From: Candidatus Moraniibacteriota bacterium
GTDB lineage: Bacteria > Patescibacteriota > Minisyncoccia > Moranbacterales > UBA1568
Direction: 5' to 3'
NCBI GenBank assembly: GCA_013336285.1
Contig: JAAXTX010000003.1
Span: 3,448 to 67,447 of the forward strand
Length of the DNA: 64,000 bases
Both the position numbers and the translations under genes were made by a program. Under the pieces are notes generated by a model. The model was not told the DNA's origin. It did not search any database and saw nothing but the letters and a program-made list of their open reading frames with translations. Each line of letters begins with the position of its first letter. Within the stretch, counting starts at the first letter, position 1. Below are positions 7,567-30,888 of this stretch, piece by piece.

Positions 7567-9135
7567 TCAGTAACTTGATCCGTTCCCTCCCCACCGGAAC
7601 ACGAGTACGTCGCCACGGATGAGCACGTTACTTTGTCGGTCCATATGCCTGTACATGAAATTCTCAGCATCCCTCGAAATGTAATCCGCATCGTTACCGG
7701 AAAAGATTACCCATCCGGATGAGTACTTGGACATCAGCGACTGAAGTTCCGCCGTGGTCAGTTTGACCGTCGAGAGTTCGCCTCCAAAGTCGTAGACCGG
7801 AACATGCATACCGTTCCAGTAGTAGTTCCGAAAATTCCGAGCCACAAGTATTTCGCCGTCCGATGCGTTCTTCCGAAAGAACTGGAATATTTTCCTGTAG
7901 TTTGCGGCACTTCCGGAAGCGGTCTCATGATACGTATTATTTTCCTCAAGGAAATATCCCCAATTCGGCACCAGAAGTGCCAATGTGACAGTAGTCATGC
8001 AAGCAACATGTTTCCATCTTGCCGCCAGGAGTTTCTTTGCCTCGTTAACGAGTGCGTAACCTCCGGTCGCAATAAGGATTGCGAAAAAAGACTGTGCGAA
8101 AAAGATATACTGTTGCCCTTCGTTTCGACGCCATAACCAGACAGCCATAGCAAGCGGCACTAGAAACGACGATGAGAGCCATATTGCCTCCCGCTCGCGA
8201 TCGTATTTCCTAGCCAGAGACTGCGCCCCGAATACGGCGAGAAAAACGGCTAACATGGGCGCCCCGTAGTCCCTTACGACATAACCGAAATACGAATAGT
8301 GATTGTCAAACCAGACAAGCGTCTCCAAATAGGGCTTCATTTTTCCGGGCAACGCCAAAAATACTATCGCTGTCCCAATAATCCCGGTAAGAATCGTTGC
8401 TACATATTTATTCTGATAGCCGTTACCTTTCCGCCATTCACGTAAGGCCATAACTGTGACATAGATGCCGAAAATGGGGAGGATATTTACGGTCAACTGA
8501 TGAGTCATCGCGGATAGCGCTCCAAGTAGGACAACTGGGGCAAGATATGTGAAATTGAGCCCCGTTTTCGTCCAGGAAATCCTGAGGGATTTGAGCCGTC
8601 CTTTGTATTCATGCTCGAAGAACAGGAAAAGGGCCGTTGAAAATAGCAGATAAACCGGAAAGAACATTGAGTACATGCGCAACTTCCGATCAAATTCGAT
8701 TCCAGACGATGAAACCGCGAAAAGAAAGGCGGCAAAAAGTCCGATGGTTCTGCGTCCGGAAAGTTTCCATCCCACGAGAAACATGATCACCACCGTAAGT
8801 ACGCCCCATAAGGCCGATATGGCACGTGCATTTGCCTCTGTCGGGGGAAGAAACCGGAACACCTGTACGACCTGCCATTTATAGATGTTCGCACGCTCGT
8901 CACGGGCATCGTTCTCGTTAACGACGGCGGCTTTTCCGTCGTTGAAGTCCCATGCCTTCCATTCGCCCGTCTTGAAATATCCATAAGACGAATTGATGTC
9001 CAGGAATTCGTCCGCTACAAACGAATTGTTCCCCAGTCCCCAAAAACGAAGGGTCGCTCCAAGAATCAAGATAACCGCTAACGCTACAAATTTTATCTGC
9101 CGTACGCTCTTCATATAATTCCGCAGATTAGTCAT
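7567..9135 (-). CDS. GT-C fold membrane glycosyltransferase, ArnT/PMT-like (GT39/GT83 family), paralog A.
   Basis: Membrane protein with many TM helices. The family's acidic motif sits just after TM1 (FVADEFLDINSSYGYF). Confidence 0.62.
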   Translation of the reverse strand: MTNLRNYMKSVRQIKFVALAVILILGATLRFWGLGNNSFVADEFLDINSSYGYFKTGEWKAWDFNDGKAAVVNENDARDERANIYKWQVVQVFRFLPPTEANARAISALWGVLTVVIMFLVGWKLSGRRTIGLFAAFLFAVSSSGIEFDRKLRMYSMFFPVYLLFSTALFLFFEHEYKGRLKSLRISWTKTGLNFTYLAPVVLLGALSAMTHQLTVNILPIFGIYVTVMALREWRKGNGYQNKYVATILTGIIGTAIVFLALPGKMKPYLETLVWFDNHYSYFGYVVRDYGAPMLAVFLAVFGAQSLARKYDREREAIWLSSSFLVPLAMAVWLWRRNEGQQYIFFAQSFFAILIATGGYALVNEAKKLLAARWKHVACMTTVTLALLVPNWGYFLEENNTYHETASGSAANYRKIFQFFRKNASDGEILVARNFRNYYWNGMHVPVYDFGGELSTVKLTTAELQSLMSKYSSGWVIFSGNDADYISRDAENFMYRHMDRQSNVLIRGDVLVFRWGGNGSSY

Positions 9136-9179
9136 ACGTGGCTTACAGAATATCGCAACACTCGTTCATATAAGGCTTT

Positions 9180-10970
9180 TCAATTACCGACATCATCATC
9201 TCTTGCGTCGTTATTGGTGTCATTATGTCTGTTCCACCATTCGCTCCATGTATATCTCGGAAGTGCCGACGGGTTATCCTTCACCTTTCCGGATTCGAAC
9301 ACTTGTCGTCTCGCCTGTATGAATTCCGGCTTCGGTCGGAATTCTATCATGGTAAGCGTCCCGAAAGAGCGTGTCCCGATGAGATCATATTTCTCCAGAT
9401 ATTTTTTCGTTCCGTCGTCCAGATCGGACTTTGAACGGAGAATTGTGAGATATATACCTTCCTCATACAAACCATCCATACCGAATACCCCGTTCTCTAC
9501 CCCGGAACGTTCCAACAGATACTTGAGCGCTCGCCTATACTCCGGCTCACTCCACATGTATATAGGGTACCCGTTCTCTTCCGAGCGCTCCTTGAGATAT
9601 GCGACGATCATTTCCTGCAATTTGAGCGGTACACGGACGCGTTCCTTTAAAATGCGGTCCGACGGACTTTTCACAGCTTCGTACGGCGCCTTGGCAAGCT
9701 GGTCGAATCTTCTGTTCACGAAGAATAGATTGGAAGCAGCGAGAAGCATGATACCGACCACTGTTCCGAATATGACCGCTCGTTTCCAAGGAAGAAGCCT
9801 TTGAGCGGTTTCAAAAAGAAACCCGAGAAATAGAAACGGTACAGGTGCCGTGACCAGGAAAAATCGCGGCGCTATTCCGTACGAAAGAGGCAAATAGAGA
9901 ACGAAGGGGATAAGAAACCACAGTCCGGAAAGGAGGAGTAGGTCGGCTTTCCTCCGGTTACGCTCTTTCCACCAAAGAAATCCGAGCGAAAGAACGCCGA
10001 GAGTGAAAATTAAAATGGAACCAATCGCATACGGCCAACCATGCCGACAACCCGGATCGCATTCAGCTACCAGTCCGTCCGATCCGTTTTTGAACGTGAA
10101 AAAGTCACCGCCTTCGTATCCCGTCGACACGACCAGAAAACCGAGCCCGTGTTCGGAAATATCCTTTACGAGTTTCGCGGACATCGAATGTTCCCCTTTT
10201 GATGATTTGTTCGTGACCGCGGAAATAAACGCCTTCGAATTCACGCCACCGGTCACCATCTCGTTCAATGCGACAGGGACATATAACAGCATGACGATAC
10301 CTGCCGCCAGCAACCAGACTTTCGCCGTAAAACGAGGTCTTCGAATCAACAGGAATGCGAGCGTAATGGCCGGAAGGGCCACAAAAGCAAGGAAGTGCAG
10401 ATGCGTGGAGAATCCGATAGCGGACGCGGCAATTAAAAACCAGCGGCCGGCGTGTTTCGCCTCCGGTTCCACTGAACGCAAAAGTGCGTAAAATCCGAGT
10501 ATAGCGAAAAAAGGAAGCGGGTTCGGATTCCAGGCAAATCGCCCATACATGACGAGAAACGTAGAGACGGAGAACAGCGACGTAAGACCGAGAGAAAGCC
10601 ATTCCGAAAAATACCGACGCGAGAGCAGAAAAAAAAGACCGATCGCCGCGACGGAGAGAATCGGAATGAAGAAAGCCATTCCGACCGGAGTCGCCCCGAA
10701 AAGGAGTCCGCTCAGATATTGCAGGTAATAAAATCCGGGACCAAGCCGAAGGGATGTCCCGCCCGCCTTCATGCCGAGCAGCGTAAGTTCCCCCGGCCCA
10801 CCAAAGAGGGCATCATTCACGACACGGGCATCCCTCGACTGATCGAGTTCGAAATGCATCCAGTCATGAAAATGATAAAAACGAAGAAACGTTCCGATCA
10901 GGATGACAAGAATGAGCCCTAAAATGGCCAATTTTGACGTATTGGTGGCTGCTTTCTTTTCCTGTGACAT
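9180..10970 (-). CDS. GT-C fold membrane glycosyltransferase, ArnT/PMT-like, paralog B.
   Basis: TM1 is followed by HFELDQSRDARVVNDALF. The TM-rich N-terminal half and soluble C-terminal domain match the ArnT/PMT architecture. Confidence 0.62.
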   Translation of the reverse strand: MSQEKKAATNTSKLAILGLILVILIGTFLRFYHFHDWMHFELDQSRDARVVNDALFGGPGELTLLGMKAGGTSLRLGPGFYYLQYLSGLLFGATPVGMAFFIPILSVAAIGLFFLLSRRYFSEWLSLGLTSLFSVSTFLVMYGRFAWNPNPLPFFAILGFYALLRSVEPEAKHAGRWFLIAASAIGFSTHLHFLAFVALPAITLAFLLIRRPRFTAKVWLLAAGIVMLLYVPVALNEMVTGGVNSKAFISAVTNKSSKGEHSMSAKLVKDISEHGLGFLVVSTGYEGGDFFTFKNGSDGLVAECDPGCRHGWPYAIGSILIFTLGVLSLGFLWWKERNRRKADLLLLSGLWFLIPFVLYLPLSYGIAPRFFLVTAPVPFLFLGFLFETAQRLLPWKRAVIFGTVVGIMLLAASNLFFVNRRFDQLAKAPYEAVKSPSDRILKERVRVPLKLQEMIVAYLKERSEENGYPIYMWSEPEYRRALKYLLERSGVENGVFGMDGLYEEGIYLTILRSKSDLDDGTKKYLEKYDLIGTRSFGTLTMIEFRPKPEFIQARRQVFESGKVKDNPSALPRYTWSEWWNRHNDTNNDARDDDVGN

Positions 10971-11061: not shown

Positions 11062-13326
11062 ATGTGGTTTTTTAATACGACTGATCGCAAGGAAGCTATT
11101 TCTCTGACAATTCTCGCCGTACTGTTCAACATCACCTCTTTCCTCTTCATCCTTAAATTCTTTCCACAAGCCCAACGCCTCGGGCTCATTCTCCCACGAA
11201 CCTTCTTCATAATTTCACTTCCCATTTCCGTCACTTTACTGTTCGGAGGGGTCTTCTATTTCAATCCCTTCCGATGCGTTTCTGATTGGTCATCCAAACT
11301 ACTCCTCTTTATTTTTCCGTCGGCTTTCATGTTCTTGATCGGTTGGCGTCTCGGTGAAAACGTTTCTAATTCGGTAAAACTGTTCGTTTCCTTCTATGTA
11401 TTTTTCATAAGTTCATATTATTTCACAAGGCTCACAATCAGAAAAAAAGAGTCCCTGCATTCGCCAGAAGTATACGAACCTTCGGTTTTCCAATGGATTC
11501 GCAAGCAGGGATGGCGAAGGATTTTGGCCGTTGTAGCCCTCACTGCCGTTTTTTTCATATTCGCCGTACGCGATCTCGGTTCCTACGCCGCAGTAGATGA
11601 AGCCCTCTGGCTCTATGACAGGATTCCGAAATTCTGGAATGCCGTATCCGATCTCAAGCCGGAAAAAACAGGCATAAGCGACAAGCCGGGTATCACCGTC
11701 GCCCTGGCAAGTGGATCAGGACTGTTCTATGAGGCCAATCCGAAGTCATGGAAGAGTGTCCGTGGAAGCGCATTCGATATTCCGGGGTTTTTCAGCACGT
11801 TCCGACTTCCGCTGGTCATCTTAGTCACCGTTCTCCTGCCTATTTTCTACTATCTCCTCGAACGACTTTCCGGAAAGACATCAGCCTTGTTTGCTTATTC
11901 GTTCATCTCTCTCTCGCCTGTCACGATCGGCATGGCAAAGATCATCAACCCCGATTCTCTCCTTTGGGTCTTTGCGCCACTCTCACTTTTTGCCTATTTG
12001 ACTTACATCAAGCGAAAACATCTCGGATTCCTCTTCCTATCGGGTGTCTTGCTCGGACTCGCGCTCCTCACGAAATACGTCGCCAATTTCCTGTTCATAT
12101 TCATGCTCGGCGCCATATTCCTCGAATATGCACTCCGAAGCGAGGAGGAACCCTTCCTCCCCTATCTCAAACGCTCACTCACGGCATACGCACTCTGGAC
12201 CGCTACGGCTCTCTTAACTTTTTTTCTTCTCTTTCCCAACATGTGGGTCAAACCGTGGAAAATACTCGACGCCACAATCTTTTCCCAAGCATTCGAAAAG
12301 GTCGCCTATCTCTTCATCGCCTTGTTCATAACCATACTCGTTGATAGTTTTCTGAACCGTTCCCGATTCGCCGAAGCGACCGCCGGGTTCCTGAAATCTC
12401 AGTACCGTCTTGTCGTCGGTCTGATTTGTGCTACATGGTTATTGCTCCTTATCACTGTCTGTGGGGATACTTGGGCAGATATGAAGCCGTATGACTTCAT
12501 GGATATCCTTGCCGCCCCGAAAACCATCATCAGCAGGGCTACCGTTATCGGCGTCTACATCTCTAATGCGTATCCACTTATTTTCGGCGTGACCCCCATC
12601 GTATTCGTGCTGCTTCTTGCCACTCCCTTCGTCGCGACCAAAGGACGGAATATCAGATCCGCTGCCGGAAAGTCCATGCTATTAGGAATACTGTTCATCA
12701 TGCTCTACTATGTGGCAACCTCGGTCAATAAGGTCGGCGCCATTACCCGCTATCAGATCATGCTCTTTCCGATCGCAGGTGCGGTCGCGGGGATCACGCT
12801 CGGGCTCATCGTGAAGTCTGTCGGTAATCCGTCTTCCGGGAATCGAAAGTGGACGAGATATCTCGTACCGACGATTTTTTCAATACTGGTCATTTCCGGG
12901 TTCATCACGCTCGCACGGACGCCTTTCCCCCTAAGCTACGCTTCGGCGCTCCTGCCGAACCGCTACAATCTCGACGTCAAGGATATGGGTCCTGGGAGCT
13001 ACGAGGCAGCTCAATACCTGAATTCGCTTCCGAATTCGAATGGCCTGCTGATCTGGACCGACAAAAGCGGGGTATGCAAATTTTTCAACGGAGGATGCAA
13101 AAGCAGTTTCGACTGGACCAACTACCAGAATCTTCCCTTTGACTATGTCGTCGTCTCTTCCGGGCGTGAAAGCCGCACCGACAAACGCATTATCGGAGCG
13201 ATCAACGGCGGACGGAACGATGCCATACGCTTCGACGAATATTATGGGATGACTGACCCGGTCTGGGAACTCCTCATCAACGGACGCCAGTCACATTATG
13301 TAAGGATCTATCGGTTCAAACGCTGA
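11062..13326 (+). CDS. GT-C fold membrane glycosyltransferase, ArnT/PMT-like, paralog C. Start placed at the first ATG that does not overlap the divergent gene; the longest ORF begins at 10903.
   Basis: Carries the VDEALWLYDRIPKF acidic loop motif. Its C-terminal domain is clearly homologous to paralog D (YEAAQYLNSLPNSNGLLIWTDKSGVCKFFNGGC versus YEAVQYLNSLPDADHLTVWSDYYGVCEFFRGNC). Confidence 0.6.
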   Translation: MWFFNTTDRKEAISLTILAVLFNITSFLFILKFFPQAQRLGLILPRTFFIISLPISVTLLFGGVFYFNPFRCVSDWSSKLLLFIFPSAFMFLIGWRLGENVSNSVKLFVSFYVFFISSYYFTRLTIRKKESLHSPEVYEPSVFQWIRKQGWRRILAVVALTAVFFIFAVRDLGSYAAVDEALWLYDRIPKFWNAVSDLKPEKTGISDKPGITVALASGSGLFYEANPKSWKSVRGSAFDIPGFFSTFRLPLVILVTVLLPIFYYLLERLSGKTSALFAYSFISLSPVTIGMAKIINPDSLLWVFAPLSLFAYLTYIKRKHLGFLFLSGVLLGLALLTKYVANFLFIFMLGAIFLEYALRSEEEPFLPYLKRSLTAYALWTATALLTFFLLFPNMWVKPWKILDATIFSQAFEKVAYLFIALFITILVDSFLNRSRFAEATAGFLKSQYRLVVGLICATWLLLLITVCGDTWADMKPYDFMDILAAPKTIISRATVIGVYISNAYPLIFGVTPIVFVLLLATPFVATKGRNIRSAAGKSMLLGILFIMLYYVATSVNKVGAITRYQIMLFPIAGAVAGITLGLIVKSVGNPSSGNRKWTRYLVPTIFSILVISGFITLARTPFPLSYASALLPNRYNLDVKDMGPGSYEAAQYLNSLPNSNGLLIWTDKSGVCKFFNGGCKSSFDWTNYQNLPFDYVVVSSGRESRTDKRIIGAINGGRNDAIRFDEYYGMTDPVWELLINGRQSHYVRIYRFKR

Positions 13327-13333
13327 CCTGCCT

Positions 13334-15202
13334 ATGAAGAAGCCGCTGAGAATACACGAGCATGTCGCGACCACCCTCCTTGCCGGCATTATTCTAGTCT
13401 CTCACCTCGCTCTCGGGATCCCTCACATCGGATCCTTCATCACGGCGGACGAGCATTATTGGGTCGAAGAGCGCATCCCGGACTACTTCGATGCCTGGGC
13501 AAGGCTCAAATGGAAGAAGACCCTCATAAACGACAAGCCTGGCGTCTCGCTTGCACTCGTTTCCGGTCCGGCACTCCTCTTCCATCCCGGAGGGATCCTC
13601 AGCTGCCGGACCGTGGAAGGACATACGTCTACCTGCGACCCCGCGGTCACTTCATCCCTCTATGCGTCGTTCCGGTTCCCGATTCTCGTCACGAACGCTC
13701 TGATGCTCGTCGCGATATTCTTCGCAATCCGCGCCTTTTCCGGTACGGCTGTCGCGTTCATGACGGCGATATTCGCTGCCGTCTCGCCCCAGCTCGTCGG
13801 TATGTCGCAGATCGTCAATCCGGATTCGCTGCTTTGGTCCTCGGGCGCGCTTGCGATCTTTTCGATGGCCGCTTTTCTGACGACTCTCAGGAAACGGCAT
13901 CTCATCACCGCTATCCTCTCACTCTGTTTGGCGCTCCTTTCCAAATACGTCGCGCTCATCATCATCCTGTTCCTTCCCGCGCTCCTGCTCGGCATCCATC
14001 TGTCCGACGAAGATTCAGAAAAGGTCGGACGACGCCTCCAGAGATTCCTGGGAACGGTCCTTACCTCGTTCGTCCCGCTTACGATATTCGTCCTCGCCGC
14101 ACCGGGAGTCCTCTCGTCGGACGAACGCATCATCGCGTTCCTTTCCGCCGATACCGGAAACATCTTCCTTCCCTGGGGCGCTTTCGCCGCATCCCTCGCT
14201 GTCACCGCTACGGTCATGTTCGCGAGAATTCCGAAACGTGTCGTCAGAAGGCTCGACCTGACGTTCCGCTGGTTGTTGGCAGCAACCGGAGTCATCCTCG
14301 TTTTATCCATCATGACGCTCATAGTCGCCCGATTGACTGCTCCGTCCTGGGACTACGAGATCTTCCGCCGCATTCCGTTCGACATTAAGAATATCTCCGA
14401 CGCGAAATACTATACCGATAAACGACTCACTCCGACCGATGTAGCGGCTTTGGAATTCTCACCGTTCGTCTACTCGCTTCCGGCCGCCGTGCTGATTCTC
14501 GGTACAGCCGCCCTGTTTAACCGTTCCTTGCGGGTCATGCGTGACAGAACGTCCGTCATTCCCCTTCTCATGGCACTCTTCATCGCGATAGAACTGGCAG
14601 CCTTCGCCGGATCGGGCATACGAACCACGCCGAGATACGTCCTCCTGACCCTTCCGATATTCTGCTTTCCGGCAGCCGATACGGCGGTCCGGATCGGTAG
14701 AGCGCTGCGCGGCCGTCTTCCGGAGCGATTGCGTTCCTTCACGCTCCCGGCCATCATCACACTCTCCGTCTTCGCTTCCCTTTCCGAGTTCGGAGGTAAC
14801 GCTCCATTCCATGCGAATTTCGCCAACGCGCTCCTTCCGAAGGACGACCTCACCGCGCATGCGTGGGGATACGGCGGATATGAGGCCGTACAATACCTCA
14901 ACTCGCTTCCCGATGCGGACCATCTCACCGTCTGGAGCGATTACTACGGTGTCTGCGAGTTCTTCCGCGGAAACTGTCTCACGAACTACACTTTCGACAA
15001 GGAAGTGACACGCCCCGATTACTACGTCCTCACCCGTCGCGGCATGTTCCGATATCTACCCCGATACGACGATTGGGAGCAGAAATCCGGCCTGACCGCC
15101 TACCGATACTACGACTCGGCCGATCCCGCCTGGGAACTCGATGTCACCGGAAAGAAAGATAATTTCGTGAAGGTAATCCAGGTAAAAGACGATACGCTAT
15201 GA
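13334..15202 (+). CDS. GT-C fold membrane glycosyltransferase, ArnT/PMT-like, paralog D.
   Basis: Carries the ADEHYWVEERIPDYF motif and is a tandem paralog of the upstream gene. Confidence 0.65.
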   Translation: MKKPLRIHEHVATTLLAGIILVSHLALGIPHIGSFITADEHYWVEERIPDYFDAWARLKWKKTLINDKPGVSLALVSGPALLFHPGGILSCRTVEGHTSTCDPAVTSSLYASFRFPILVTNALMLVAIFFAIRAFSGTAVAFMTAIFAAVSPQLVGMSQIVNPDSLLWSSGALAIFSMAAFLTTLRKRHLITAILSLCLALLSKYVALIIILFLPALLLGIHLSDEDSEKVGRRLQRFLGTVLTSFVPLTIFVLAAPGVLSSDERIIAFLSADTGNIFLPWGAFAASLAVTATVMFARIPKRVVRRLDLTFRWLLAATGVILVLSIMTLIVARLTAPSWDYEIFRRIPFDIKNISDAKYYTDKRLTPTDVAALEFSPFVYSLPAAVLILGTAALFNRSLRVMRDRTSVIPLLMALFIAIELAAFAGSGIRTTPRYVLLTLPIFCFPAADTAVRIGRALRGRLPERLRSFTLPAIITLSVFASLSEFGGNAPFHANFANALLPKDDLTAHAWGYGGYEAVQYLNSLPDADHLTVWSDYYGVCEFFRGNCLTNYTFDKEVTRPDYYVLTRRGMFRYLPRYDDWEQKSGLTAYRYYDSADPAWELDVTGKKDNFVKVIQVKDDTL

Positions 15203-16236
15203 ACCGAAAGCCGTCCTCCCCGAGAAACGGCGGTCCGTTTTCGACAATATCCGTTTCCGTATCCGTCCTCGCCGGCATTACGCTGGCTTCGGCCGCGTTT
15301 GTCCTTCCGGCGTTCTTTCGCCTGGAAACGAAGGTACCGGATCCTGTACCGATTGAGAAACCGAATCCGTTCCGTATCGGTATCGTGACTGACATACACG
15401 GACAGACCGGCAAGCAGTACAGCTCCAAGTTCATGGATCCGGATAAGATCATGCGCCCTCTGTATCGCTTCGAGGGGTATATGCAGGATGTCTTCCGTCC
15501 CGACCTGATCGTGGAGGACGGAGACTTCGTCGAGGGTTCGAACCGTGCCGGCGACAAGTCCGTTACGGACTTCACGTTCCTCCGGGATGAGCTCGACCGG
15601 ACCGGGTTTCCCGTACTCCACGTCATCGGGAACCATGACCGACGCGGGTTCGACGACTCCGAATGGAAGACGCTTACTGGCAACGATTCAACCTACTACT
15701 TCCGCGACGAGAGCGACATACGGATCGTCGTTCTCGACTATGACGACTCGAAAGTCGGCGATGAGTTGCCCGATGAAGACGCTTCGAAAACCACGGGTTC
15801 CAGTGGGAAATACTCGATATCCGAAAATCAGTTCGCCTGGATAGACCGCACGCTTGCGGACGCCGGAGGCCGCCGTGTCGTCGTCTTCACGCATGTCCCG
15901 GTAAACGAGAACGCGATTATGCCGGGAGCCTACGTCAACCCGTCGGAAGACCGTCGGAGGCTCCGCGATCTCTTCGCCGAATACGGCGTGAAAGCCGTGA
16001 TCTCGGGCCACGTCGAACTCTTCCGTTACGAGGAGGACCGCGGCGTCCGGTATTTCGTGCTCCCCGGATTCCATCGGAGTGAGGCGAAGAGCAAGCCTGA
16101 AAAATGGTTCGGGACCTACTCCGCGCTGACGATCACGGACCGGGCCGATATGCTTGTTCGATACGAAAAGGAATTCGGCGGAGCGTACGAAGAGGTCTGG
16201 GTGCCATCGGAAGCGTTCGACACGCTTCCCAAGTAA
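15199..16236 (+). CDS. Membrane-anchored metallophosphoesterase (calcineurin-like).
   Basis: Calcineurin-like phosphoesterase motifs IVTDIHGQ, EDGDFVE, VIGNHD, VFTHVP and ISGHVE follow an N-terminal TM helix. The gene overlaps the upstream stop in ATGA. Confidence 0.7.
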   Translation: MNRKPSSPRNGGPFSTISVSVSVLAGITLASAAFVLPAFFRLETKVPDPVPIEKPNPFRIGIVTDIHGQTGKQYSSKFMDPDKIMRPLYRFEGYMQDVFRPDLIVEDGDFVEGSNRAGDKSVTDFTFLRDELDRTGFPVLHVIGNHDRRGFDDSEWKTLTGNDSTYYFRDESDIRIVVLDYDDSKVGDELPDEDASKTTGSSGKYSISENQFAWIDRTLADAGGRRVVVFTHVPVNENAIMPGAYVNPSEDRRRLRDLFAEYGVKAVISGHVELFRYEEDRGVRYFVLPGFHRSEAKSKPEKWFGTYSALTITDRADMLVRYEKEFGGAYEEVWVPSEAFDTLPK

Positions 16237-16248: not shown

Positions 16249-17193
16249 CTATCCGATATCGTATTCCCGCTTCTCCCGGAAGAATGCCGACGCCCCCATA
16301 AGACTGACGAGAATCTGCAAAAATCGTCCAAGGAGCGCTACCGCGAGCGCCGTTTCGGGTCGTATGCCGATAAGTGGCAGAAATGCGTAGTACGCCCATT
16401 CCTTAAGCCCGATATTGTTCACGGAAACAGGAAGACTGGAGATGATGCTTATCAGGAATACGACGGAAAAGTATGGGATGATCGGTACAGGTGAACCAAG
16501 CGCCCAGAATATCATCATATTGAAGAGCCCTACGCCTACGATCGTGAATATCGCGGAAACGACGAGCGTGTCCCGAAAAAATCTGAGGTCGGTATACCCT
16601 CCGATTTCACCGAATACGTTCCGTATCTTTTCCGGTAGAAAATCGAATGCCTCATGAAGGTGCCGTCGTGCATAGAAAAAGAACGCATCAACCAGGAGAA
16701 AGCCGAATAGGGATATTCCGAAAACGGCGAACAGGTTCTGCGAGAACACGTCCTTGTATCCGATAAGTCCGAATAGGAGAAACAGGATAATGGTCACGAA
16801 CAGACCCGTGAACCTGACGAACATGACCGATGAAAATGCTGCGGCATAGCGTTTTTCCGACTTCCCGAGAATGTAACTCTGATAGGCGTCCCCACCGATA
16901 AACGACGGAAGGAAATTGTTCAGAAAAAGTCCGGCATAGAAATGCTCCCGCGCACTCCGAAGACTCATCGAAAATCCTTTGAACTGCGCGGTCCGCCACC
17001 ACCTGTGTACGCAAAGTTCGATCCCGAACACGTAGAGCAACGCGGCTACAAGCAGGAACGGAACGGAGGCCTTTGAGAATTCTCCCCACATATCGGTCCA
17101 ATCGACCCGCCAGACGAGCAATCCGATCAAACCCGCGGCTACGGTCGATTTCGCCAGCAGTTGTAACGTATTCTTCGTTCCCGGTGATGACAT
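16249..17193 (-). CDS. Flippase-like UPF0104 family membrane protein (lysylphosphatidylglycerol-synthase-TM-like).
   Basis: Eight TM helices and the N-terminal pattern LLxxxVxxGLIGLLVWRVDW, typical of this family. Family members commonly sit beside polyprenyl-phosphate GT2 genes. Confidence 0.55.
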   Translation of the reverse strand: MSSPGTKNTLQLLAKSTVAAGLIGLLVWRVDWTDMWGEFSKASVPFLLVAALLYVFGIELCVHRWWRTAQFKGFSMSLRSAREHFYAGLFLNNFLPSFIGGDAYQSYILGKSEKRYAAAFSSVMFVRFTGLFVTIILFLLFGLIGYKDVFSQNLFAVFGISLFGFLLVDAFFFYARRHLHEAFDFLPEKIRNVFGEIGGYTDLRFFRDTLVVSAIFTIVGVGLFNMMIFWALGSPVPIIPYFSVVFLISIISSLPVSVNNIGLKEWAYYAFLPLIGIRPETALAVALLGRFLQILVSLMGASAFFREKREYDIG

Positions 17194-17264: not shown

Positions 17265-18413
17265 TCATTGCCGAATTGCCGCCAGTTCGTAATCATCTAC
17301 GTAAGATTTTGCCACGGTATACCAACTCATCGACTCTGCCCTGATTCGGCTCGCGGCACCCATACGTCTTCGAAGTTCCGGATCGGCAACAAGCTTACCC
17401 AGTTTATCAGCAAGATCATCCGCAGATCCGGTTTTCACGAAGAAACCGTTCTCCCCATCGGTCACCAGCTCTTGCGTCCCACCTGTCACGGTAGCGACCA
17501 CGGGCAATCCCGAGGCAATCGCCTCAAGCACCGTATTACTCATCCCCTCGTTGAGTGACGGGAGACAGAAGATATCGGATTCGCGATACACGCTTGGTAA
17601 ATCATCATGAGGAACCAGCCCGCGAAACTCTACCCGATCCGTTACACCCTTCTCCGCGGCGAGTGCCTCCAGATTCGAGCGTTCCCCCCCACCACCAACG
17701 ATAACAAGCCTGGTAACGATTGGAAGAGATGACATCGCATCAACCAGGAAGCGGATTCCTTTTCGTGGAGTGAGACGCGATACGACCAAAATCCTGACTA
17801 CCCCGTCATCCTTACGTTCACCGGAAGGAGTAAACTGCCCCGTGTCGACTCCGTTCGGAATAGCCGGAATCTCCCGTCGGGGATCCGTCCGATGAGCAAG
17901 TTCGGTCAGGCCCGAACTGTTGGATATGACCTTTACGGCACGATACCATATAAGCCTCACGACTGGACGGATAATCCCGTACATCAATTTGAAACGCTCG
18001 CTGTATCCGGGAACATCGGCGCCCCGAAGCGAGACGATGTACGGCAGACGGAATTCGATTCCGAGTATCATAGCCAAAAAACCGCAAGGAACGGTAAAAA
18101 AGGCGTGGATAAGATCAAAGTCACCCTCATCTCGTATCAACTTCCGCGAGAACAGCAGTGCCTTCCACGAGTATGTCAGAAGATCGGTCCTTGACTGGTA
18201 GTGCAGATTCTTCGGATCCTTGCCGATAGGCAGACGATGGACTATGACATCATCACTAACGGCCTCCCGAGAATAATTTCCGTCCACGGCAGCCGTCACA
18301 AGGTGTACCGAAAGACCGGCTATGCCGGCATACTCGCGAAGCAGGTACGCCGTCGCATTCCCCGCCCCTCCGCCGAGCGGCGGGTACTCGTAGTTGAGAA
18401 AAAGTACTTTCAT
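17265..18413 (-). CDS. GT4 family glycosyltransferase.
   Basis: MKVLFLNYEYPPLGGGAGN N-terminus, and the C-terminal GT-B motif EGMSNTVLEAIASGLPVVAT. Confidence 0.75.
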   Translation of the reverse strand: MKVLFLNYEYPPLGGGAGNATAYLLREYAGIAGLSVHLVTAAVDGNYSREAVSDDVIVHRLPIGKDPKNLHYQSRTDLLTYSWKALLFSRKLIRDEGDFDLIHAFFTVPCGFLAMILGIEFRLPYIVSLRGADVPGYSERFKLMYGIIRPVVRLIWYRAVKVISNSSGLTELAHRTDPRREIPAIPNGVDTGQFTPSGERKDDGVVRILVVSRLTPRKGIRFLVDAMSSLPIVTRLVIVGGGGERSNLEALAAEKGVTDRVEFRGLVPHDDLPSVYRESDIFCLPSLNEGMSNTVLEAIASGLPVVATVTGGTQELVTDGENGFFVKTGSADDLADKLGKLVADPELRRRMGAASRIRAESMSWYTVAKSYVDDYELAAIRQ

Positions 18414-20805: not shown

Positions 20806-21531
20806 TTAACGATTTCTCCGAAACAGCATGATTGAGATTATAAGGATGACCAGAGCACCGATGGATCCGAAAACGATGACGAGTATTCTGCTGTTTTCCG
20901 ATTTTGCCACTGTTATCTGTGTCGACTGGTCCGAATCAATCGTCTGGGTCGGCATACCGACCGGTGGCTCGTATTCCCGGAGAAGCTCAGCGCCTGTCTG
21001 CGGATCCCGTATCAATCCGTTGTTCTGATCAAGAAGCTGCTGTGTGGACAGACTATACTTTACGTTTCCCGAAGCACAGTCAGTAAGACACGTGCCCATA
21101 TTCTCTCCCTTTTCGAACTCACAGATCCCGTTCGCGTTACATTTCACGAATTCCGCCAGATTCCCTTCAAGAAGAACCTCCCCGGTCTTGACTAAGGTCA
21201 CCTGGAAGCGATTCACGATACTGAAATATGGAACCTTGAACGGAAATTTTCCCTGTGGCATATTGAAATTCGTCGATACCGCTTTCGCCCCGCTCACATC
21301 GAACAGATCCAGACTATACGGACCGGCATGGGTCGCTCTCGAAAAATCAAAAATGGAAAAAGCGGGGTCGTCCGTCTTCGCAACAGGCTCGGTCGTAGAC
21401 GTATCAAGCATGATCCTGTCCCCCGCCCGTTCAAGATGAAAAACCCAGACCTCCTCGGCTGAAGCCTCAGAAATCGGCATCAGAGCCAAGGTGAACAACG
21501 ACATTACAAGCAGACCGAAACTGTATTTCAT
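20806..21531 (-). CDS. Secreted/surface protein with a signal peptide and a C-terminal TM anchor (hypothetical).
   Basis: N-terminal signal MKYSFGLLVMSLFTLALMPISEASA, four Cys residues and a C-terminal hydrophobic segment ILVIVFGSIGALVILIISIMLF-RRNR. Confidence 0.5.
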   Translation of the reverse strand: MKYSFGLLVMSLFTLALMPISEASAEEVWVFHLERAGDRIMLDTSTTEPVAKTDDPAFSIFDFSRATHAGPYSLDLFDVSGAKAVSTNFNMPQGKFPFKVPYFSIVNRFQVTLVKTGEVLLEGNLAEFVKCNANGICEFEKGENMGTCLTDCASGNVKYSLSTQQLLDQNNGLIRDPQTGAELLREYEPPVGMPTQTIDSDQSTQITVAKSENSRILVIVFGSIGALVILIISIMLFRRNR

Positions 21532-21544: not shown

Positions 21545-22714
21545 CTATTTGCAATTGTTATAATACGTCTCCACGCGACCGCAATAATCCCGCGTCGTCG
21601 TCGCGCACCTGTTTGGCCCCCCTGCGTTCCAACAAGAAGCCACCTTTCGTATGTCGTTAAGCGAACAACCGTGCTTGGCGTTATCGTTCAAGAGCCACGC
21701 CGTACAGTTCATGTCGAGCGTGATGTCGCCCTGAATCTTTGCACACGTCTGGGCTGCGGTTCCGGTTATTCCGCACTTCGTACGATTTTCCGGCAATAGC
21801 TGACCATACCCGCAGGAACCGTGTCCATCAGTCGAAATGGATTTATTACAACCCTCACCTCCCTGAATAATGGATGTGATAATATTCGCGCTGATATGAT
21901 ACGTGTTGCTGCTAATAGCATTCGCTATGGTCGGATCCGTAGCACACCTTCCGGTCGTACAAGTTCCGGCTCCACCGACAGTCGCGAACGTGTACGGTGC
22001 GTCGGTATTCGCATCGGTGAATGGCGTCGTCGTCGTAAGCGACGTATCCGAAGCTATCGAAGCGATAGTGGCTGACTGCCCGTTTATGATGATCGTATCA
22101 CCGACTTTCAACGTCGACCGGAAAGTAGTCCCCGTCCCGGTCACCGTAGTTCCGCCCGCGACATTCGTAACCGTACCGTTTCCGACCTGCGCCACCTGTG
22201 CCCCGGTCCCCTGAACAGCCGTACCCGCCGAAGAAGTCGTATCACACTCTATTTGAAAGCCGTGTTGGATACTGAACGACGCGCTCACGCCGAGATCGGT
22301 CTTCGTCGGCAGCAGCCAGTAAATGATAAGATTGACGATCAACCAGGCGAACAGGACTATAGTGATTCCGGACAATGCGGCCCAGAGCCCCTTCTTTGCG
22401 GTCCCGATCAAGCCCTCGTTTCCGGATGAAACGATGTATAGCACGCCCATTGCCGTAATGATGGAAAGGGCGAGAAATACCATGACCGCCATGAAGTAGT
22501 CGATGATATTCTTGATGCCGACGAAGAAATGACACAGCGTACACGGGTTCTCCATGGGACCGCCGCACGGCACAAGTCCTGCAGCTTGGACGGAATGCGG
22601 AAGAAGAGAAAGAGCGAGAAGCGCGAGAGTGACACTGAATACCATCACGAACCAGAACGATTTCGGTCTGATCATATTGCTATGGAAATACCGGTTTTTT
22701 TCTCGTCCCCTCAT
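21545..22714 (-). CDS. T4SS-pilin-like (TrbC/VirB2-like, VPCG-motif) protein fused to a long Thr/Gly-rich and Cys-rich C-terminal extension. The start is possibly the internal Met at 22675.
   Basis: Signal peptide, then AGLVPCGGPMENPCTLC, then two hydrophobic helices. This matches the pilin-like proteins common in CPR genomes. About 250 further residues follow: a GT-rich stretch (TGTGTT..., TSLTTTTPF) and a domain with about 14 Cys. Confidence 0.5.
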   Translation of the reverse strand: MRGREKNRYFHSNMIRPKSFWFVMVFSVTLALLALSLLPHSVQAAGLVPCGGPMENPCTLCHFFVGIKNIIDYFMAVMVFLALSIITAMGVLYIVSSGNEGLIGTAKKGLWAALSGITIVLFAWLIVNLIIYWLLPTKTDLGVSASFSIQHGFQIECDTTSSAGTAVQGTGAQVAQVGNGTVTNVAGGTTVTGTGTTFRSTLKVGDTIIINGQSATIASIASDTSLTTTTPFTDANTDAPYTFATVGGAGTCTTGRCATDPTIANAISSNTYHISANIITSIIQGGEGCNKSISTDGHGSCGYGQLLPENRTKCGITGTAAQTCAKIQGDITLDMNCTAWLLNDNAKHGCSLNDIRKVASCWNAGGPNRCATTTRDYCGRVETYYNNCK

Positions 22715-22875: not shown

Positions 22876-23835
22876 TCAGGTGCGATCATAATGGCGATAC
22901 CAATCCACGAAACGAGCTACGCCCTCGTCGATATTCGTGCAGGGAGTCCAACCGAGCGCGCGAAGCTTCGAGATGTCCGCGACCGTACGGCTCACGTCGC
23001 CAGACTGCATCGGAAGCATCCGTTTTTCGGCGGTTTTTTCGGCATACTTTTCCACCGCCGCAATATAATCCGAAAGTGCCTCGTCCCGGTCACCACCGAT
23101 GTTCATGACACTTCCTGGCGGCAGATCGGCATCAAGCGTTACGAGTATCCCGGATACTATGTCGTCGATATAGGTAAAGTTTCGACGCATATCCCCACCG
23201 TTATAGACATCGATCGGTTTGCCGTCAATAATGTTCGCCACGAACTTGAACACGCCCATATCGGGCCTTCCCCATGGTCCATAGACGGTAAAAAACCGTA
23301 GTCCGGTCGTCTTCATGCCGTATACATGTCCGTAAACATGGGCAAGAAGTTCGGTAGATTTTTTCGTCGCCGCATAGACAGATACCGGATGATCGACCGG
23401 GTCCGACTCCGAAAACGGTACTTTGGCGTTCTCTCCGTAGACGGACGACGACGAGGCGTATACAAAATGATTCGTCCCGAACTTCCTGGCACATTCGAGC
23501 ATATTAAGCGTACCCATCACGTTCACGTCGGCATAGAGTTCAGGCCGCTCGAGCGAATACCGCACTCCCGCCATCGCGGCCAAATGGATAATCCTTTCCG
23601 GTTGTTCTTTCTCGAAAACGGAATCAAGAAACGCACGGTCGCGGACATCGCCTTCATACAAACGAAACTTCCCCTCGTATCCACGCAGGAACACCGAAAT
23701 ACGGTCACGCTTCAGTTTCGGGTCGTAATAATCGTTGAAATTGTCGATGAGTATCGGGGTATCGCCACCATCCATCAAAGCCTTGGCCACGGCCGATCCG
23801 ATAAACCCCGCCCCGCCGGTAACGAGAATGGTCAT
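22876..23835 (-). CDS. NAD-dependent nucleotide-sugar epimerase (GalE-like; UDP-glucuronate 4-epimerase-like).
   Basis: TGGAGFIGS NAD-binding motif and the YAATK catalytic motif, at 319 aa. Its neighbour is ugd. Confidence 0.75.
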   Translation of the reverse strand: MTILVTGGAGFIGSAVAKALMDGGDTPILIDNFNDYYDPKLKRDRISVFLRGYEGKFRLYEGDVRDRAFLDSVFEKEQPERIIHLAAMAGVRYSLERPELYADVNVMGTLNMLECARKFGTNHFVYASSSSVYGENAKVPFSESDPVDHPVSVYAATKKSTELLAHVYGHVYGMKTTGLRFFTVYGPWGRPDMGVFKFVANIIDGKPIDVYNGGDMRRNFTYIDDIVSGILVTLDADLPPGSVMNIGGDRDEALSDYIAAVEKYAEKTAEKRMLPMQSGDVSRTVADISKLRALGWTPCTNIDEGVARFVDWYRHYDRT

Positions 23836-28994: not shown

Positions 28995-29091
28995 AGCTAT
29001 CCCTTACGATGTGCCGGACGCACATTGTTTCCCCTCCATTTTACCCGTGACTGTCTCCTTTTGCAAACCGGCTCAATCATGATGCTTCACA

Positions 29092-29120
29092 TTGAAAAGA
29101 CGCCGCCTTTCGGCTATACT
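29092..29120 (+). promoter_or_regulatory. Sigma70-like promoter for paralog E, giving a leaderless or near-leaderless mRNA.
   Basis: TTGAAA, a 17-nt spacer, then TATACT, with the ATG of the gene 8 nt after the -10. The TTG of the -35 element is what the ORF track reports as its start at 29092. Confidence 0.5.
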
Positions 29121-29127
29121 GGGAAAC

Positions 29128-30888
29128 ATGGAACATGCTACTTCCACACCTGTCCGGGAGCGGTTATTTTCTTCCGCTATGGCAGGAATAGTCACGCTGG
29201 GACTTATCTCCTACGCCTCCGCTGTTGCGGGTATTTTTTTCCATGCGACAGTCCTCATTTTTTCCATTCCCATCATCACCGTGACGCTCATCCTGCTTTT
29301 CAGATGGATCCTTCGCGAAACCATTTCGACAAGAATGATATTCACATGTCTGATCGCTCTTTCCTTCGCGCTTCTCCTGCCGGTTGAACCGTCTGTCTTT
29401 TCGGGTCGCGACCAAGGATCCATCGCCGAGGCCGCGATCGAACTCGCCCATAACGGTACGCTTCATTTTTCCTCCCCGGCCGTAACGACATTCTCCGACA
29501 TTTACGGTCCGGGAAAAGCACTGAATTTCCCCGGCTTCTATTATGATGACAACGGGAAACTGACGACTCAGTTTCCGATCGGCTCCATCTCTTTTCTCGC
29601 AACATTCGTGTCCCTTTTCGGGATCACCGGCCTGCTCGTCGCCAATGGCGTACTGCTTATAGCATCGCTGTCGACCCTCTACGTCCTCGTTCGGACGCTT
29701 GCGAATGAACGTTACGCGGTAGGCACATTTTTCGCCGGTGCCCTTTCCTTCCTACCCTTGTGGTTCTCAAAGTTCACCTTGTCCGAGAATCTCTCCCTGT
29801 TCCTTTTTCTCTTCCTTTCGCTGACCCTCGTCAGATTCCTTCGGAAGCCCGATAGCGCGACATTCTTTGTTTCTTTTTTTCTGGCCATTTTTTTCGCAGC
29901 GACGCGTTTCGAGGGACTTTTTTCACTCGCCGTCTCAATCGTTATACTTTTCCTTACGCCATCTGGACGAAAATTCTCCGAAAAGGACCGACTGATGAGA
30001 CGTATCGTTCCGGTCATCATATTGATCGCAGCCCTATTTATAAACGTGTTTTCCTCGACTCCCATGTACCGAAGCATCGGCAAGGCACTCCTGCAAGACG
30101 GGTTCGCTACGGAGCACCCTATCGGTACGAACGGTTTCGCATCCACCGTCGCTCTATGGAACCTATTCATTCCGTACGGCCTTTTCCTTCCGTTCGTCCT
30201 CGGAATTATCTCTCTTGTCCTGCTGCTCTTCCGAAAACGATTTCTCGCCCTCATTCCGGCTATGCTCGCCATTCCGACCTTTCTCTTTCTCATCGATCCC
30301 ACCATCACTCCGGACCATCCGTGGATGCTTCGGCGGTTCCTATTCTCGCTTTGGCCGACTTTTTTCGTATCCGTTCCGGTCGCTTCTTACCTATTCATAA
30401 AAGACAACAAGAGTCGCGTCATTCGGTCATTACCGATCGCCTTGTTCGTACTTATCGTCATCTTTTCACTTCCGGCGACTACTCGTTCATTTTCCGTGTC
30501 CGAGAATCGCGGACTTATCAACGAGACCTCGACGCTTACACGCCGGTTCGGTAATCGCGATCTCCTCCTTATCGATCGGGAGGCGACTGGAGACCCATAC
30601 ACCATCCCGGCTGGTCCGATACGGTTCCTATACGGGAAAAATGCGGCCTACTTTTTCAATCCTTCAGATTATGAGAAGATTCCAAAGGATCGCTATGATC
30701 ACATCTATCTCCTGACCCCGATAGGAAAAATCCCCTCACAGTCAGATATTCGTGCCACCGTCGGAGAAGTCTCAATCATTCCGTTCTCCTTTCAACGGCT
30801 GGAACGGCTTCCGCTCTCCGTTGCCAGACTGCCGAAACTCGAGACTGTCAGCCAAGACGCCGCTCTCGTAGAACTCAAACCATTATGA
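29128..30888 (+). CDS. GT-C fold membrane glycosyltransferase, ArnT/PMT-like, paralog E.
   Basis: At least 12 TM helices, and the acidic loop after TM1 is SGRDQGSIAEAAIELAHNGTL. It has a C-terminal soluble domain. Confidence 0.55.
   Translation: MEHATSTPVRERLFSSAMAGIVTLGLISYASAVAGIFFHATVLIFSIPIITVTLILLFRWILRETISTRMIFTCLIALSFALLLPVEPSVFSGRDQGSIAEAAIELAHNGTLHFSSPAVTTFSDIYGPGKALNFPGFYYDDNGKLTTQFPIGSISFLATFVSLFGITGLLVANGVLLIASLSTLYVLVRTLANERYAVGTFFAGALSFLPLWFSKFTLSENLSLFLFLFLSLTLVRFLRKPDSATFFVSFFLAIFFAATRFEGLFSLAVSIVILFLTPSGRKFSEKDRLMRRIVPVIILIAALFINVFSSTPMYRSIGKALLQDGFATEHPIGTNGFASTVALWNLFIPYGLFLPFVLGIISLVLLLFRKRFLALIPAMLAIPTFLFLIDPTITPDHPWMLRRFLFSLWPTFFVSVPVASYLFIKDNKSRVIRSLPIALFVLIVIFSLPATTRSFSVSENRGLINETSTLTRRFGNRDLLLIDREATGDPYTIPAGPIRFLYGKNAAYFFNPSDYEKIPKDRYDHIYLLTPIGKIPSQSDIRATVGEVSIIPFSFQRLERLPLSVARLPKLETVSQDAALVELKPL

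Follow-up and report, generated by a model that had tools for sequence, protein, structure and literature searches.

A gene block common to Moranbacteria encodes GT-C membrane glycosyltransferases of four distant families and a predicted polyprenyl-phosphate-sugar synthase

Five polytopic GT-C proteins, encoded in a Candidatus Moranbacteria (CPR) MAG, are part of a gene block common to Moranbacteria and not the outcome of a recent five-fold expansion. Our analysis of this genome covered one window, the whole stretch of 64 kb, in which the open reading frames from 150 aa upwards, together with a few below that length, were scanned for domains, and gene order was compared with a sample of 48 species-level relatives or loci. 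Sequence comparisons indicate that the five proteins, here called A to E, form four anciently separated and mutually very distant families (A, B, C/D and E), and we consider it probable that the block serves glycosylation on the extracytoplasmic side of the cytoplasmic membrane. A sequence-only reading of the same DNA had seen in them a single ArnT-like GT-C step 'expanded to five', a view that could not be upheld, since the four families are ancient, each has its own orthologs, and E lies in another block.

All five reading frames are present where that reading had placed them. A (7567..9135, minus strand) is a 522-aa ORF, annotated by NCBI as a 515-aa 'hypothetical' protein (HGA31_00855), and lies 44 bp downstream of B on the same strand (9180..10970, minus; 596 aa). 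C (11062..13326, plus; 754 aa; alternative start at 10903) diverges from B and precedes D (13334..15202, plus; 622 aa). E (29128..30888, plus; alternative TTG start at 29092) is a 586-aa ORF, annotated as 569 aa and also 'hypothetical' (HGA31_00930). Each of the five is a GT-C protein by transmembrane fold or family, and structure-based fold matching agrees with this assignment, as had been proposed. The Pfam family PMT_2 (PF13231), named 'RgtA/B/C/D-like' in InterPro, is matched above its gathering cut-off of 26.1 bits by B (43.3 bits, E-value 5.6e-11), C (38.3 bits) and D (36.4 bits), whereas A and E have no match at an E-value of 0.01 or below; among their orthologs, 7 of 33 for A (best E-value 3.5e-7) and 9 of 34 for E (best 6.6e-7) do match. 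C can be described as a D-like core preceded by a further N-terminal module, some 150 aa long and with three TM segments. In its AF2 model, the soluble C-terminal domain of A measures only about 130 aa, and its nearest NCBIfam model is Agl23 ('flippase activity-associated'), far under the cut-off of 126 bits.

Three better known families were considered and rejected as homes for these proteins. Membership in ArnT (GT83) proper was ruled out because no match at an E-value of 1 or below was obtained with phmmer for A–E against the PDB, which includes ArnT (5ezm/5f15), and a profile of the A family did not match ArnT in the PDB either. PMT (GT39) proper was ruled out as well, PF02366 being below its cut-off of 22.7 bits in B (21.8) and D (18.9) and without a match in A, C and E, and MIR domains being absent from all five in the Pfam scan. 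As to STT3/PglB/AglB oligosaccharyltransferases, neither W[WYF]D[YWF]G nor WWD occurs in A–E. At the level of fold, the protein O-mannosyltransferases Pmt2 and Pmt4 are near the top of the matches, ArnT and Pmt2 score nearly as high as STT3B, and AftA, AftB, AftD, PimE and EmbA are also found; the scores of catalytic GT-C enzymes are twice that of PIG-U.

The acidic motifs by which the sequence-only reading had united the five proteins are all present in the translations: FVADEF in A (aa 39–44), FELDQSRD in B (40–47), AVDEALW in C (177–183), TADEHYW in D (37–43) and SGRDQGS in E (92–98). Their supposed position after TM1 is correct for A, B and D but not for C, where about four hydrophobic segments come before the motif, nor for E, where three helices do. 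Within each family these residues are strongly conserved: D35/E36 of A (33 sequences), R77/D78 of E (34 sequences) and V178/D179/E180 of C (53 orthologs) are invariant, and E41/D43/Q44/R46/D47 of B and D39/E40 of D are each retained in 90% or more of the orthologs. In AF2 models of A and E the acidic residues stand where the first helix past the TM1-equivalent helix begins. The profile alignment of A with B joins a second motif of A, ARDERA, to SRDAR of B, and not the two motifs that had been paired by eye. The acidic residues that open the first extracytoplasmic helix are putatively of the catalytic type.

Only C and D resemble each other in sequence (27% identity over 616 aa, E-value 2e-54; C 153–754 aligned with D 13–619 by hhalign at 100% probability), so that the description of the five as paralogs does not apply to the set; no pairwise similarity was found among A–E apart from this pair. 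A and B are related by profile only (hhalign, 93.7%), and E reaches a profile probability of at most 11% with any other family (0.3% with A). C and D had been called tandem duplicates, and they are indeed true paralogs with common C-terminal motifs (YEAxQYLNSLP, GVCxFFxGxC), although not recent ones: in a set of 95 sequences, the 62 members of the C clade and the 33 of the D clade are reciprocally monophyletic, which indicates an ancient duplication.

The proposal that the glycosylation genes belong together is borne out by synteny across Moranbacteria. The gene order in species-level relatives is GT2-Ugd-GT4a-UPF0104-(D)-C<->B-A<-MOP, where MOP stands for a MOP-family flippase gene (Wzx/SpoVB/MurJ-like; 5271..6827, plus strand) convergent with A. 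Orthologs of A, B and C occur in fixed order, each in 43–48 of the 48 loci (46 for B); the core C<B>A> with MOP alongside is seen in 45, the pattern D<C<B>A> in 13, and MOP adjoins A in all 48. Wherever the flanks of a locus extend far enough, GT2-Ugd-GT4-UPF0104 is found on the other side of the core. The number of GT-C genes per locus ranges from 1 to 6, with 0 to 4 additional B-like or D-like copies per genome. A gene for a metallophosphoesterase (15199..16236, plus strand; Pfam Metallophos, 53.9 bits; one N-terminal TM segment, aa 17–35), whose start overlaps the stop of D by 4 bp, is found again among the GT-C genes of roughly 10 of the 48 loci. E belongs to a second conserved block, separate from the A-B-C core. 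Directly past it, with a 4-bp overlap and translational coupling, lies u30885 (30885..32051, plus strand), which encodes a single-TM protein with no Pfam or NCBIfam match and has orthologs (35–49% identity) in the same position in all three loci compared for this block (L081–L083); it is a candidate accessory or acceptor-binding partner of E. In these three loci the same pair of GT4 genes, overlapping in our window (24049–25281 and 25278–26495, minus strand; Pfam GT4, Glycos_transf_1), lies between the epimerase and Clp genes. Close spacing or overlap of the genes suggests that they are organized in operons.

On the donor side, the central gene encodes a GT2 of the ArnC/GtrB/DPM1 type (19758..20699, minus strand; Glycos_transf_2, 110.7 bits), the sole ArnC/GtrB-type GT2 among the window ORFs scanned. 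Its assignment to the polyprenyl-phosphate family, already made from the sequence, was confirmed: in the PDB it aligns over its full length with ArnC (154 bits, residues 8–311 against 10–314), GtrB (104) and DPMS (76), and it has two C-terminal TM helices (236–254 and 271–289), so that its role as maker of a polyprenyl-phosphate-sugar donor is well supported and probable. It carries the motifs VDDGSTDGT and MDGDLQND (DGD), and its orthologs in the loci of relatives are 67–73% identical. Full-length NCBIfam matches to ArnC (NF007986; 163 bits, equivalog cut-off 529) and PgfS (155, cut-off 500) do not make it an ArnC equivalog. The other accessory genes that had been named (ugd, a GalE-like SDR epimerase, UPF0104 and the metallophosphoesterase) are all present by domain searches. 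Ugd (18419..19744, minus strand) has all three UDPG_MGDP_dh domains and exceeds the cut-off of TIGR03026 (446.8 bits; TuaD-like, 468 bits), and the extended-SDR NDP-sugar epimerase or dehydratase (22876..23835, minus strand; Epimerase, 198 bits) finds 5u4q as its best PDB match (335 bits), then GalE and UDP-GlcA-epimerase-type entries, and reaches no NCBIfam equivalog cut-off. Together, these two enzymes could possibly provide a uronic acid as donor sugar, with UDP-GalA or UDP-GlcA as putative substrate of the GT2; they could equally feed the six cytoplasmic GT4s of a Wzx/Wzy-type or teichuronic-acid-like pathway, and the donor could originate elsewhere in the genome.

Two candidates are available for the flippase. 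The UPF0104/LPG_synthase_TM (PplT) membrane protein (16249..17193, minus strand; PF03706, 114.8 bits) exceeds the cut-off of the TIGR00374 flippase-like domain (55.5 bits), and its gene always adjoins GT4a (17265..18413, minus strand; Glycos_transf_1, 146.8 bits), which is present in 34 of the 48 loci. GT4a reached no NCBIfam equivalog and showed no GlcN-PG synthase match among its 25 best-listed NCBIfam matches; by analogy, the two genes may be a glycolipid synthase and flippase pair whose product serves as membrane anchor or acceptor. MOP, the other candidate, matches Polysacc_synt_3 (81.6 bits) and MurJ (40 bits) in Pfam, and because its best NCBIfam scores are against SpoVB (70) and MurJ (46), both under their cut-offs, it may be a lipid II flippase. 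The scanned ORFs of the window, which include some of the small ones, gave no match to the GtrA flippase family. Of the conventional set of genes said to be intermingled with this route, the Wzx-like MOP, a Wzy_C ligase or polymerase candidate (1859–3535), a WbaP-like Bac_transf protein and six GT4 genes were recovered, but the Wzz-like member has one faint match (E-value 0.044). Between the GT2 and epimerase genes lie a secreted or anchored protein (20806..21531, minus strand), with a signal-like N-terminus and a C-terminal TM by hydropathy, which has no Pfam or NCBIfam match and no ortholog among the fetched loci, and a membrane protein (21545..22714, minus strand) that combines a weakly T4SS-pilin-like N-terminal region with a stretch rich in Thr and Gly and a C-terminal part rich in Cys. 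The latter had been called pilin-like, a name that its sub-threshold match to the T4SS-pilin model PF18895 (E-value 0.0061; 17 bits, cut-off 26.6) does not sustain; a gene with the same weak match adjoins the epimerase in L081. That this protein is a glycan acceptor is pure conjecture.

Put together, these data are consistent with a pathway in which the GT2 would transfer one sugar from a UDP-sugar to undecaprenyl (polyprenyl) phosphate on the cytoplasmic side of the membrane, the UPF0104 protein or MOP would then flip the lipid-linked sugar, and the five GT-C enzymes would pass it to extracytoplasmic acceptors, one of which could be the glycolipid made and flipped by the GT4a-UPF0104 pair. 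The sugar, the flippase and the acceptor are inferred in this scheme, and so is the link between the donor and the GT-C enzymes, for which the GT2 gene kept near them is indirect support. Because the four families parted anciently and have each been maintained as a distinct ortholog, the most likely view is that A, B, C/D and E are non-redundant enzymes that act on different acceptors or form different linkages in one conserved envelope glycoconjugate.

Other readings of the same genes have to be weighed. The GT-C enzymes could O-glycosylate surface proteins (the T4SS-pilin-like protein, S-layer proteins or pili) rather than a lipid or polymer, still with a polyprenyl-phosphate-sugar made by the GT2, an arrangement known from PMT, streptococcal Pgf and GtrB/PgtC2-type systems. 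We regard this as unlikely, though it is worth keeping in mind: Pmt2 and Pmt4 are among the best fold matches, the GT2 resembles PgfS, the Thr/Gly-rich protein lies within the same operon-like run and has its counterpart in L081, and according to one study a GtrB-type enzyme and a GT-C act on Ser/Thr-rich regions in streptococci (PMC12041528). Against it, PF02366 is below its cut-off or without a match and MIR is lacking, as described above, the pilin-like match is below threshold, and the stepwise building of a glycan accounts better for four distinct conserved families than does modification of proteins alone. Improbable, in our judgement, is a role of one or more of the GT-C proteins, especially A, as oligosaccharyltransferase, ligase or polymerase on an undecaprenyl-diphosphate oligosaccharide flipped by MOP (Wzx) in the WbaP/GT4/Wzx pathway, with no polyprenyl-monophosphate sugar. 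The constant convergence of A with MOP and the presence of WbaP-like, Wzy_C and six GT4 genes speak for such a role, and they are offset by the absence of a WWDYG-type motif, the small soluble domain of A, the fold scores of ArnT and Pmt2 close to that of STT3B, the SpoVB/MurJ-like character of MOP and the existence of a separate Wzy_C candidate.

Two further alternatives concern the GT-C proteins themselves. Some of them, for instance A, might be non-catalytic GT-C-fold proteins, flippase-associated or scaffolding, like Agl23 or PIG-U/GAB1; with the Agl23 match so far beneath its cut-off, the acidic EL1 residues invariant or at least 90% conserved in every family, and catalytic GT-C enzymes scoring double PIG-U, we find this very hard to credit. 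The literal form of the sequence-only reading, in which one ArnT/PMT-like enzyme gave five paralogs by lineage-specific expansion, can draw on the true paralogy of C and D with their shared C-terminal motifs and on the variable B-like and D-like copies, and is nonetheless extremely improbable given that similarity is confined to the C–D pair, that E falls outside every other profile, that C and D sequences fall into two clades, each monophyletic with respect to the other, and that A, B and C keep their order across the loci.

A block acting as we propose would belong to multi-component transmembrane glycosylation, a class of mechanism already well known, for example, from Rgt or mycobacterial LM/LAM. 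The Gram-positive three-component systems consist of a CsbB/GtlA-type GT-A, a GtcA or Wzx-type flippase and a YfhO/GtlB/GacL-type GT-C, next to which a possible accessory protein has been proposed (PMC8035078). They share with our locus a membrane-anchored GT2 presumed to make the C55-P-sugar, GT-Cs with little mutual similarity and possibly a Wzx-type flippase, as GacK, and E with u30885 would parallel the accessory protein; here, however, a single GT2 is clustered with five GT-Cs of four families, a UPF0104 protein is present and no GtrA-type flippase among the scanned ORFs, and the organism is a CPR bacterium. In rhizobia, RgtE is a bactoprenyl-phosphate GalA transferase and RgtA–D and RgtF are ArnT-like GalA transferases, as stated in a paper citing Brown et al. 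2013 (PMC7663294). One ArnC-like GT2 would likewise serve several PMT_2-type GT-Cs (B, C and D) with different acceptor sites, and Ugd with a 4-epimerase-type SDR could supply UDP-GalA, although the Rgt enzymes modify LPS core and lipid A, whereas the window showed no genes for LPS, the uronic acid is suggested here by gene neighbourhood only, and A and E stand outside the PMT_2 curated threshold. The mycobacterial and corynebacterial LM/LAM and arabinogalactan set (GT4 PimA/B, the GT2 Ppm1, and the GT-Cs PimE, MptA–C, EmbA–C and AftA–D) offers many non-redundant GT-Cs of distant families that act serially outside the membrane with polyprenyl-P-sugar donors, starting from a flipped glycolipid made by GT4s, but without sequence-level kinship to A–E (no phmmer match in the PDB), which are smaller (520–750 aa) and have no large carbohydrate-binding domains. 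By analogy, A–E resemble the PimE/Mpt/Emb/Aft series or RgtA–D and not redundant copies. The Arn pathway (Ugd, ArnA, ArnB, ArnC, ArnD, ArnE/F, ArnT) is a poorer model: ArnA, ArnB, ArnD and ArnE/F are absent among the window ORFs scanned, A–E do not match ArnT in sequence, and the GT2 is under the ArnC cut-off. To our knowledge, a lipid A acceptor is not to be expected in CPR. Finally, the glycolipid operons GpgSDF of P. aeruginosa and HexSDF of C. difficile combine a GT4 synthase with a UPF0104 predicted flippase, the activity of GpgF being putative (PMC12713373); GT4a lies directly beside its UPF0104/PplT gene in the same manner, a pair kept in 34 loci, yet without a deacetylase gene in between.

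At its boldest, the locus could specify an undescribed, lineage-wide lipoglycan with a GT4a-made primer, flipped by UPF0104 and extended by A, B, C/D and E from one polyprenyl-phosphate-uronic-acid donor, that is, an anionic LM/LAM-like or teichuronic-like polymer which might mediate host attachment, with A and E as new GT-C families; we offer this tentatively, as a speculation more likely to fail than to stand. The genomes of CPR/Patescibacteria are tiny (1.29 Mb in the complete relative L080) and their surface chemistry is essentially uncharacterised. That three to six GT-C enzymes, a polyprenyl-P-sugar synthase and many GT4 genes stay in one fixed arrangement throughout Moranbacteria suggests a conserved envelope glycoconjugate, and probably an important one. 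A and E, so far 'hypothetical', can be annotated as GT-C glycosyltransferases, and the conserved GT2 provides a tractable entry point to the identity of the donor sugar.

The five large membrane proteins that a sequence-only reading had described as paralogous ArnT/PMT-like GT-C glycosyltransferases coincide exactly, in an ORF check, with the coordinates proposed for them: A at 7567-9135 (-, 522 aa), B at 9180-10970 (-, 596 aa), C at 11062-13326 (+, 754 aa), D at 13334-15202 (+, 622 aa) and E at 29128-30888 (+, 586 aa). Two of them are deposited as 'hypothetical protein' on one shared 81.6-kb contig, HGA31_00855 being 100% identical to A over 99% of its length and HGA31_00930 100% identical to E over 97%. 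At the sequence level only B, C and D belong to PMT_2, with 43.3, 38.3 and 36.4 bits against a Pfam cut-off of 26.1, and through these matches they are predicted to be GT-C-fold proteins. A and E have no match in Pfam and reach NCBIfam only with sub-threshold matches to Agl23 and to the LA_3751/2 putative glycosyltransferase family. Because PDB searches, by phmmer with each of the five proteins and with a profile of the A family, returned nothing relevant, the structures of A and E were predicted from ortholog alignments; the models (pLDDT 87 and pTM 0.85 for A, pLDDT 90 and pTM 0.91 for E) identify both as predicted GT-C-fold proteins, so that the fold extends to all five; its absence, which would have told against the sequence-only reading, was not observed. 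Membership of A-E in ArnT proper, PMT proper or OST fails in each case at the sequence level; OST was ruled out by the lack of a WWDYG motif.

To call the five paralogous claims too much. BLASTP and phmmer relate C and D alone (27% identity over 616 aa, with an E-value of 2e-54 in BLASTP and down to 9e-59 in phmmer). When the five ortholog families were compared with one another as profiles, the probability was 100% for C-D, 93.7% for A-B (N-terminal half only), 74% for A-D and 53% for B-D; every pairing with E stayed at or below 11%, and A and E were dropped as sequence-level paralogs at an hhalign probability of 0.3%. The description of C and D as clear tandem duplicates holds for their position and homology, but not for the age of the event. 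In a neighbour-joining tree of 95 sequences of the C/D type, the root separates 62 C from 33 D sequences; the C and D labels were assigned by HMMs for which proteins of the window had served as seeds, but the split agrees with them exactly. The C of the window shares 45% identity with other C proteins as against 27% with D proteins. This rules out a recent duplication and indicates one older than the sampled Moranbacteria.

The five acidic motifs quoted by the earlier reading are all present in the translations. A short acidic motif is little evidence by itself; those of A-E differ in being invariant, or nearly so, among orthologs: D35/E36 of A in 33/33 sequences, R77/D78 of E in 34/34 and V178/D179/E180 of C in 53/53. 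Among 69 B sequences E41/D43/Q44/R46/D47 are each kept in 90% or more, and so are D39/E40 among 22 D sequences. Taken literally, the placement after TM1 applies to A, B and D, but not to C and E, which carry extra N-terminal segments. E has two additional helices ahead of the TM1-equivalent helix, and C opens with a conserved module, absent from D, that spans about 150 aa and includes three hydrophobic segments (residues 1-152, window 11062-11520; C orthologs are 747-797 aa long). With an odd number of extra TM segments in C, the GT-C core would sit inverted in the membrane, provided that each of them spans it. A possesses a second invariant acidic motif, ARDERA, in its first external loop (R71, D72 and R74 are invariant), which also resembles GRDQG of E; hhalign pairs this stretch (residues 66-76) with residues 41-51 of B (SRDAR). 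An 'RD' motif, rather than the DE motifs that had been aligned, may be the element common to the families.

Scanning GTDB species representatives for relatives of A yielded 80 loci, all in Moranbacteria- or Parcubacteria-labelled MAGs. Flanks of a full 10 kb were available for 48 of the loci; scored by tblastn or family HMM, these show the recurrent order GT2-Ugd-GT4a-UPF0104-(D or B-like)-C<- ->B-A <-MOP-Tmk-(Wzy_C)-RtcB, where GT2 is an ArnC/GtrB/DPM1-type gene, Ugd a UDP-glucose 6-dehydrogenase, GT4a the GT4 gene adjoining UPF0104, and MOP a Wzx/SpoVB/MurJ-like flippase gene. Tmk and MOP are found in 48/48 loci, B in 46/48 and C in 43/48 by tblastn or 45/48 by family HMM; the counts for UPF0104 and GT4a (34/48 each), Ugd (18/48) and GT2 (13/48) are bounded by the reach of the flanks. 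An HMM census of 10 kb on each side of A counted one to six GT-C genes (mode 4), with the core pattern C<B>A> in 45/48 loci and the D<C<B>A> of the window in 13/48. The block is thus conserved lineage-wide, and the proposed expansion of the GT-C step to five enzymes was overstated, there being none special to this genome. Many of the MAGs that carry this Moranbacteria-specific block (L006, L008, L010-L016 and others) were deposited as 'uncultured Bdellovibrionales bacterium', apparently through an error of taxonomic labelling at the source.

E lies more than 10 kb from A in all loci of the census and has a neighbourhood of its own, kept in 3/3 loci examined: epimerase-GT4-GT4-Clp, then, divergently, E, a protein of 388-393 aa and a small ORF, followed by a GT4 gene, an amino-acid-kinase-family gene and an aaRS. 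The single-TM protein after E (30885-32051, +, 388 aa; no Pfam or NCBIfam match) overlaps the E stop by 4 bp in the window and is translationally coupled to it; its orthologs immediately follow E in three further Moranbacteria loci, at 35-49% identity. It may serve E as a partner, either as an accessory protein or by binding the acceptor. The ClpB/ClpC-like double AAA+ ATPase (26535-28994, -), divergent from E and placed after two GT4 genes in 3/3 related loci, is probably housekeeping, though the arrangement is strikingly fixed.

The GT2 protein (19758-20699, -) aligns end to end with ArnC (163 bits in NCBIfam, 154 in PDB), PgfS (155 bits), GtrB (104 bits) and archaeal DPMS (76 bits), and its sequence contains DXD motifs and a C-terminal pair of TM helices. 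All of this supports its proposed role as a polyprenyl-phosphate glycosyltransferase, and so runs counter to the second outcome that would have told against the sequence-only reading. Its score is far under every equivalog cut-off, so that the matches point to no particular sugar. Ugd is secure (TIGR03026, 447 bits). The SDR at 22876-23835 has 5u4q as top PDB match (335 bits), ahead of entries of the GalE and UDP-GlcA-epimerase types; 5u4q and 6zl6 are probably uronate 4-epimerases. Since this protein reached no NCBIfam equivalog, UDP-GalA as the product of Ugd and the epimerase is a reasonable guess, and the two might equally feed GT4 enzymes instead.

Two proteins could move the lipid-linked sugar. 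The UPF0104 protein, previously described as flippase-like, has a bona fide LPG_synthase_TM/PplT domain, for which flipping has been characterised experimentally for phospholipids only (MprF). Its gene adjoins GT4a wherever it is found among relatives, and published operons combine the domain with a GT4 glycolipid synthase (GpgS/GpgF, HexSDF; PMC12713373), so that making and flipping a glycolipid with GT4a is at least as likely as flipping a polyprenyl-P-sugar. The MOP protein (5271-6827, +, convergent with A) is another putative candidate, since the Wzx-type GacK acts as flippase in a streptococcal system (PMC8035078); its highest scores are against SpoVB and MurJ models, and it may therefore simply be a lipid II flippase. 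The metallophosphoesterase of the locus is TM-anchored and translationally coupled to D, and such genes recur within the GT-C array in about 10 loci. The supposed Wzz-like protein (47594-48211) matches at 14.5 bits only and was not accepted.

The glycan genes are interspersed with housekeeping genes (RtcB, Tmk, several aminoacyl-tRNA synthetases, Clp ATPase). The Tmk-like ORF (4723-5364, +) and the longest MOP ORF, which begins with GTG, share 94 bp, read in different frames; the real MOP start is probably further downstream. The 740-bp gap between MOP and A (6828-7566) contains two overlapping ORFs on opposite strands (6904-7524, +, 206 aa; 6907-7458, -, 183 aa), which were set aside as probably non-coding because they have no Pfam match and no protein-level conservation across 83 loci, the sole similarity in the region being a 99-bp DNA match to one of them (L071). 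The corresponding place in other genomes is sometimes taken by a metallophosphoesterase, GT2 or B-like GT-C gene. Between housekeeping genes and the second glycan-gene group, 40664-43308 (-) encodes a histidine kinase whose N-terminal region is of the 7TM type (weak HisKA_7TM match) and an adjoining protein with two receiver domains. At 58179-63209 (-), a VWA-domain protein, a MoxR-type AAA ATPase (bpMoxR), a vWA-TerF-like protein, a protein of no named family and a TerD-domain protein form a cluster that resembles the MoxR-vWA/TerD modules of stress or conflict type, here in a CPR genome.

In the proposed pathway, GT2 would make a C55-P-sugar, which would be flipped across the membrane and used by the GT-C enzymes to transfer the sugar outside it. 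That four ancient GT-C families have each been retained speaks for specificities, in acceptor or in linkage, that are distinct and not redundant. The acceptor might be a lipoglycan or a polymer of the wall, Und-PP-linked glycans, or surface proteins, a weakly pilin-like one among them. The mycobacterial LM/LAM machinery, enzymes of which are also among the fold matches, is one of the two closest precedents. The other is the rhizobial RgtE/RgtA-D/F system (PMC7663294). The literature searched on GT-C enzymes of CPR, Moranbacteria or Patescibacteria yielded no description of the cluster, although one may still exist. The sequence-only reading had thus picked out a real feature and got its pathway logic largely right, its five-paralog expansion apart. 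The conceptual novelty is modest and the value for annotation useful: the cluster is a lineage-wide system of an already known type.
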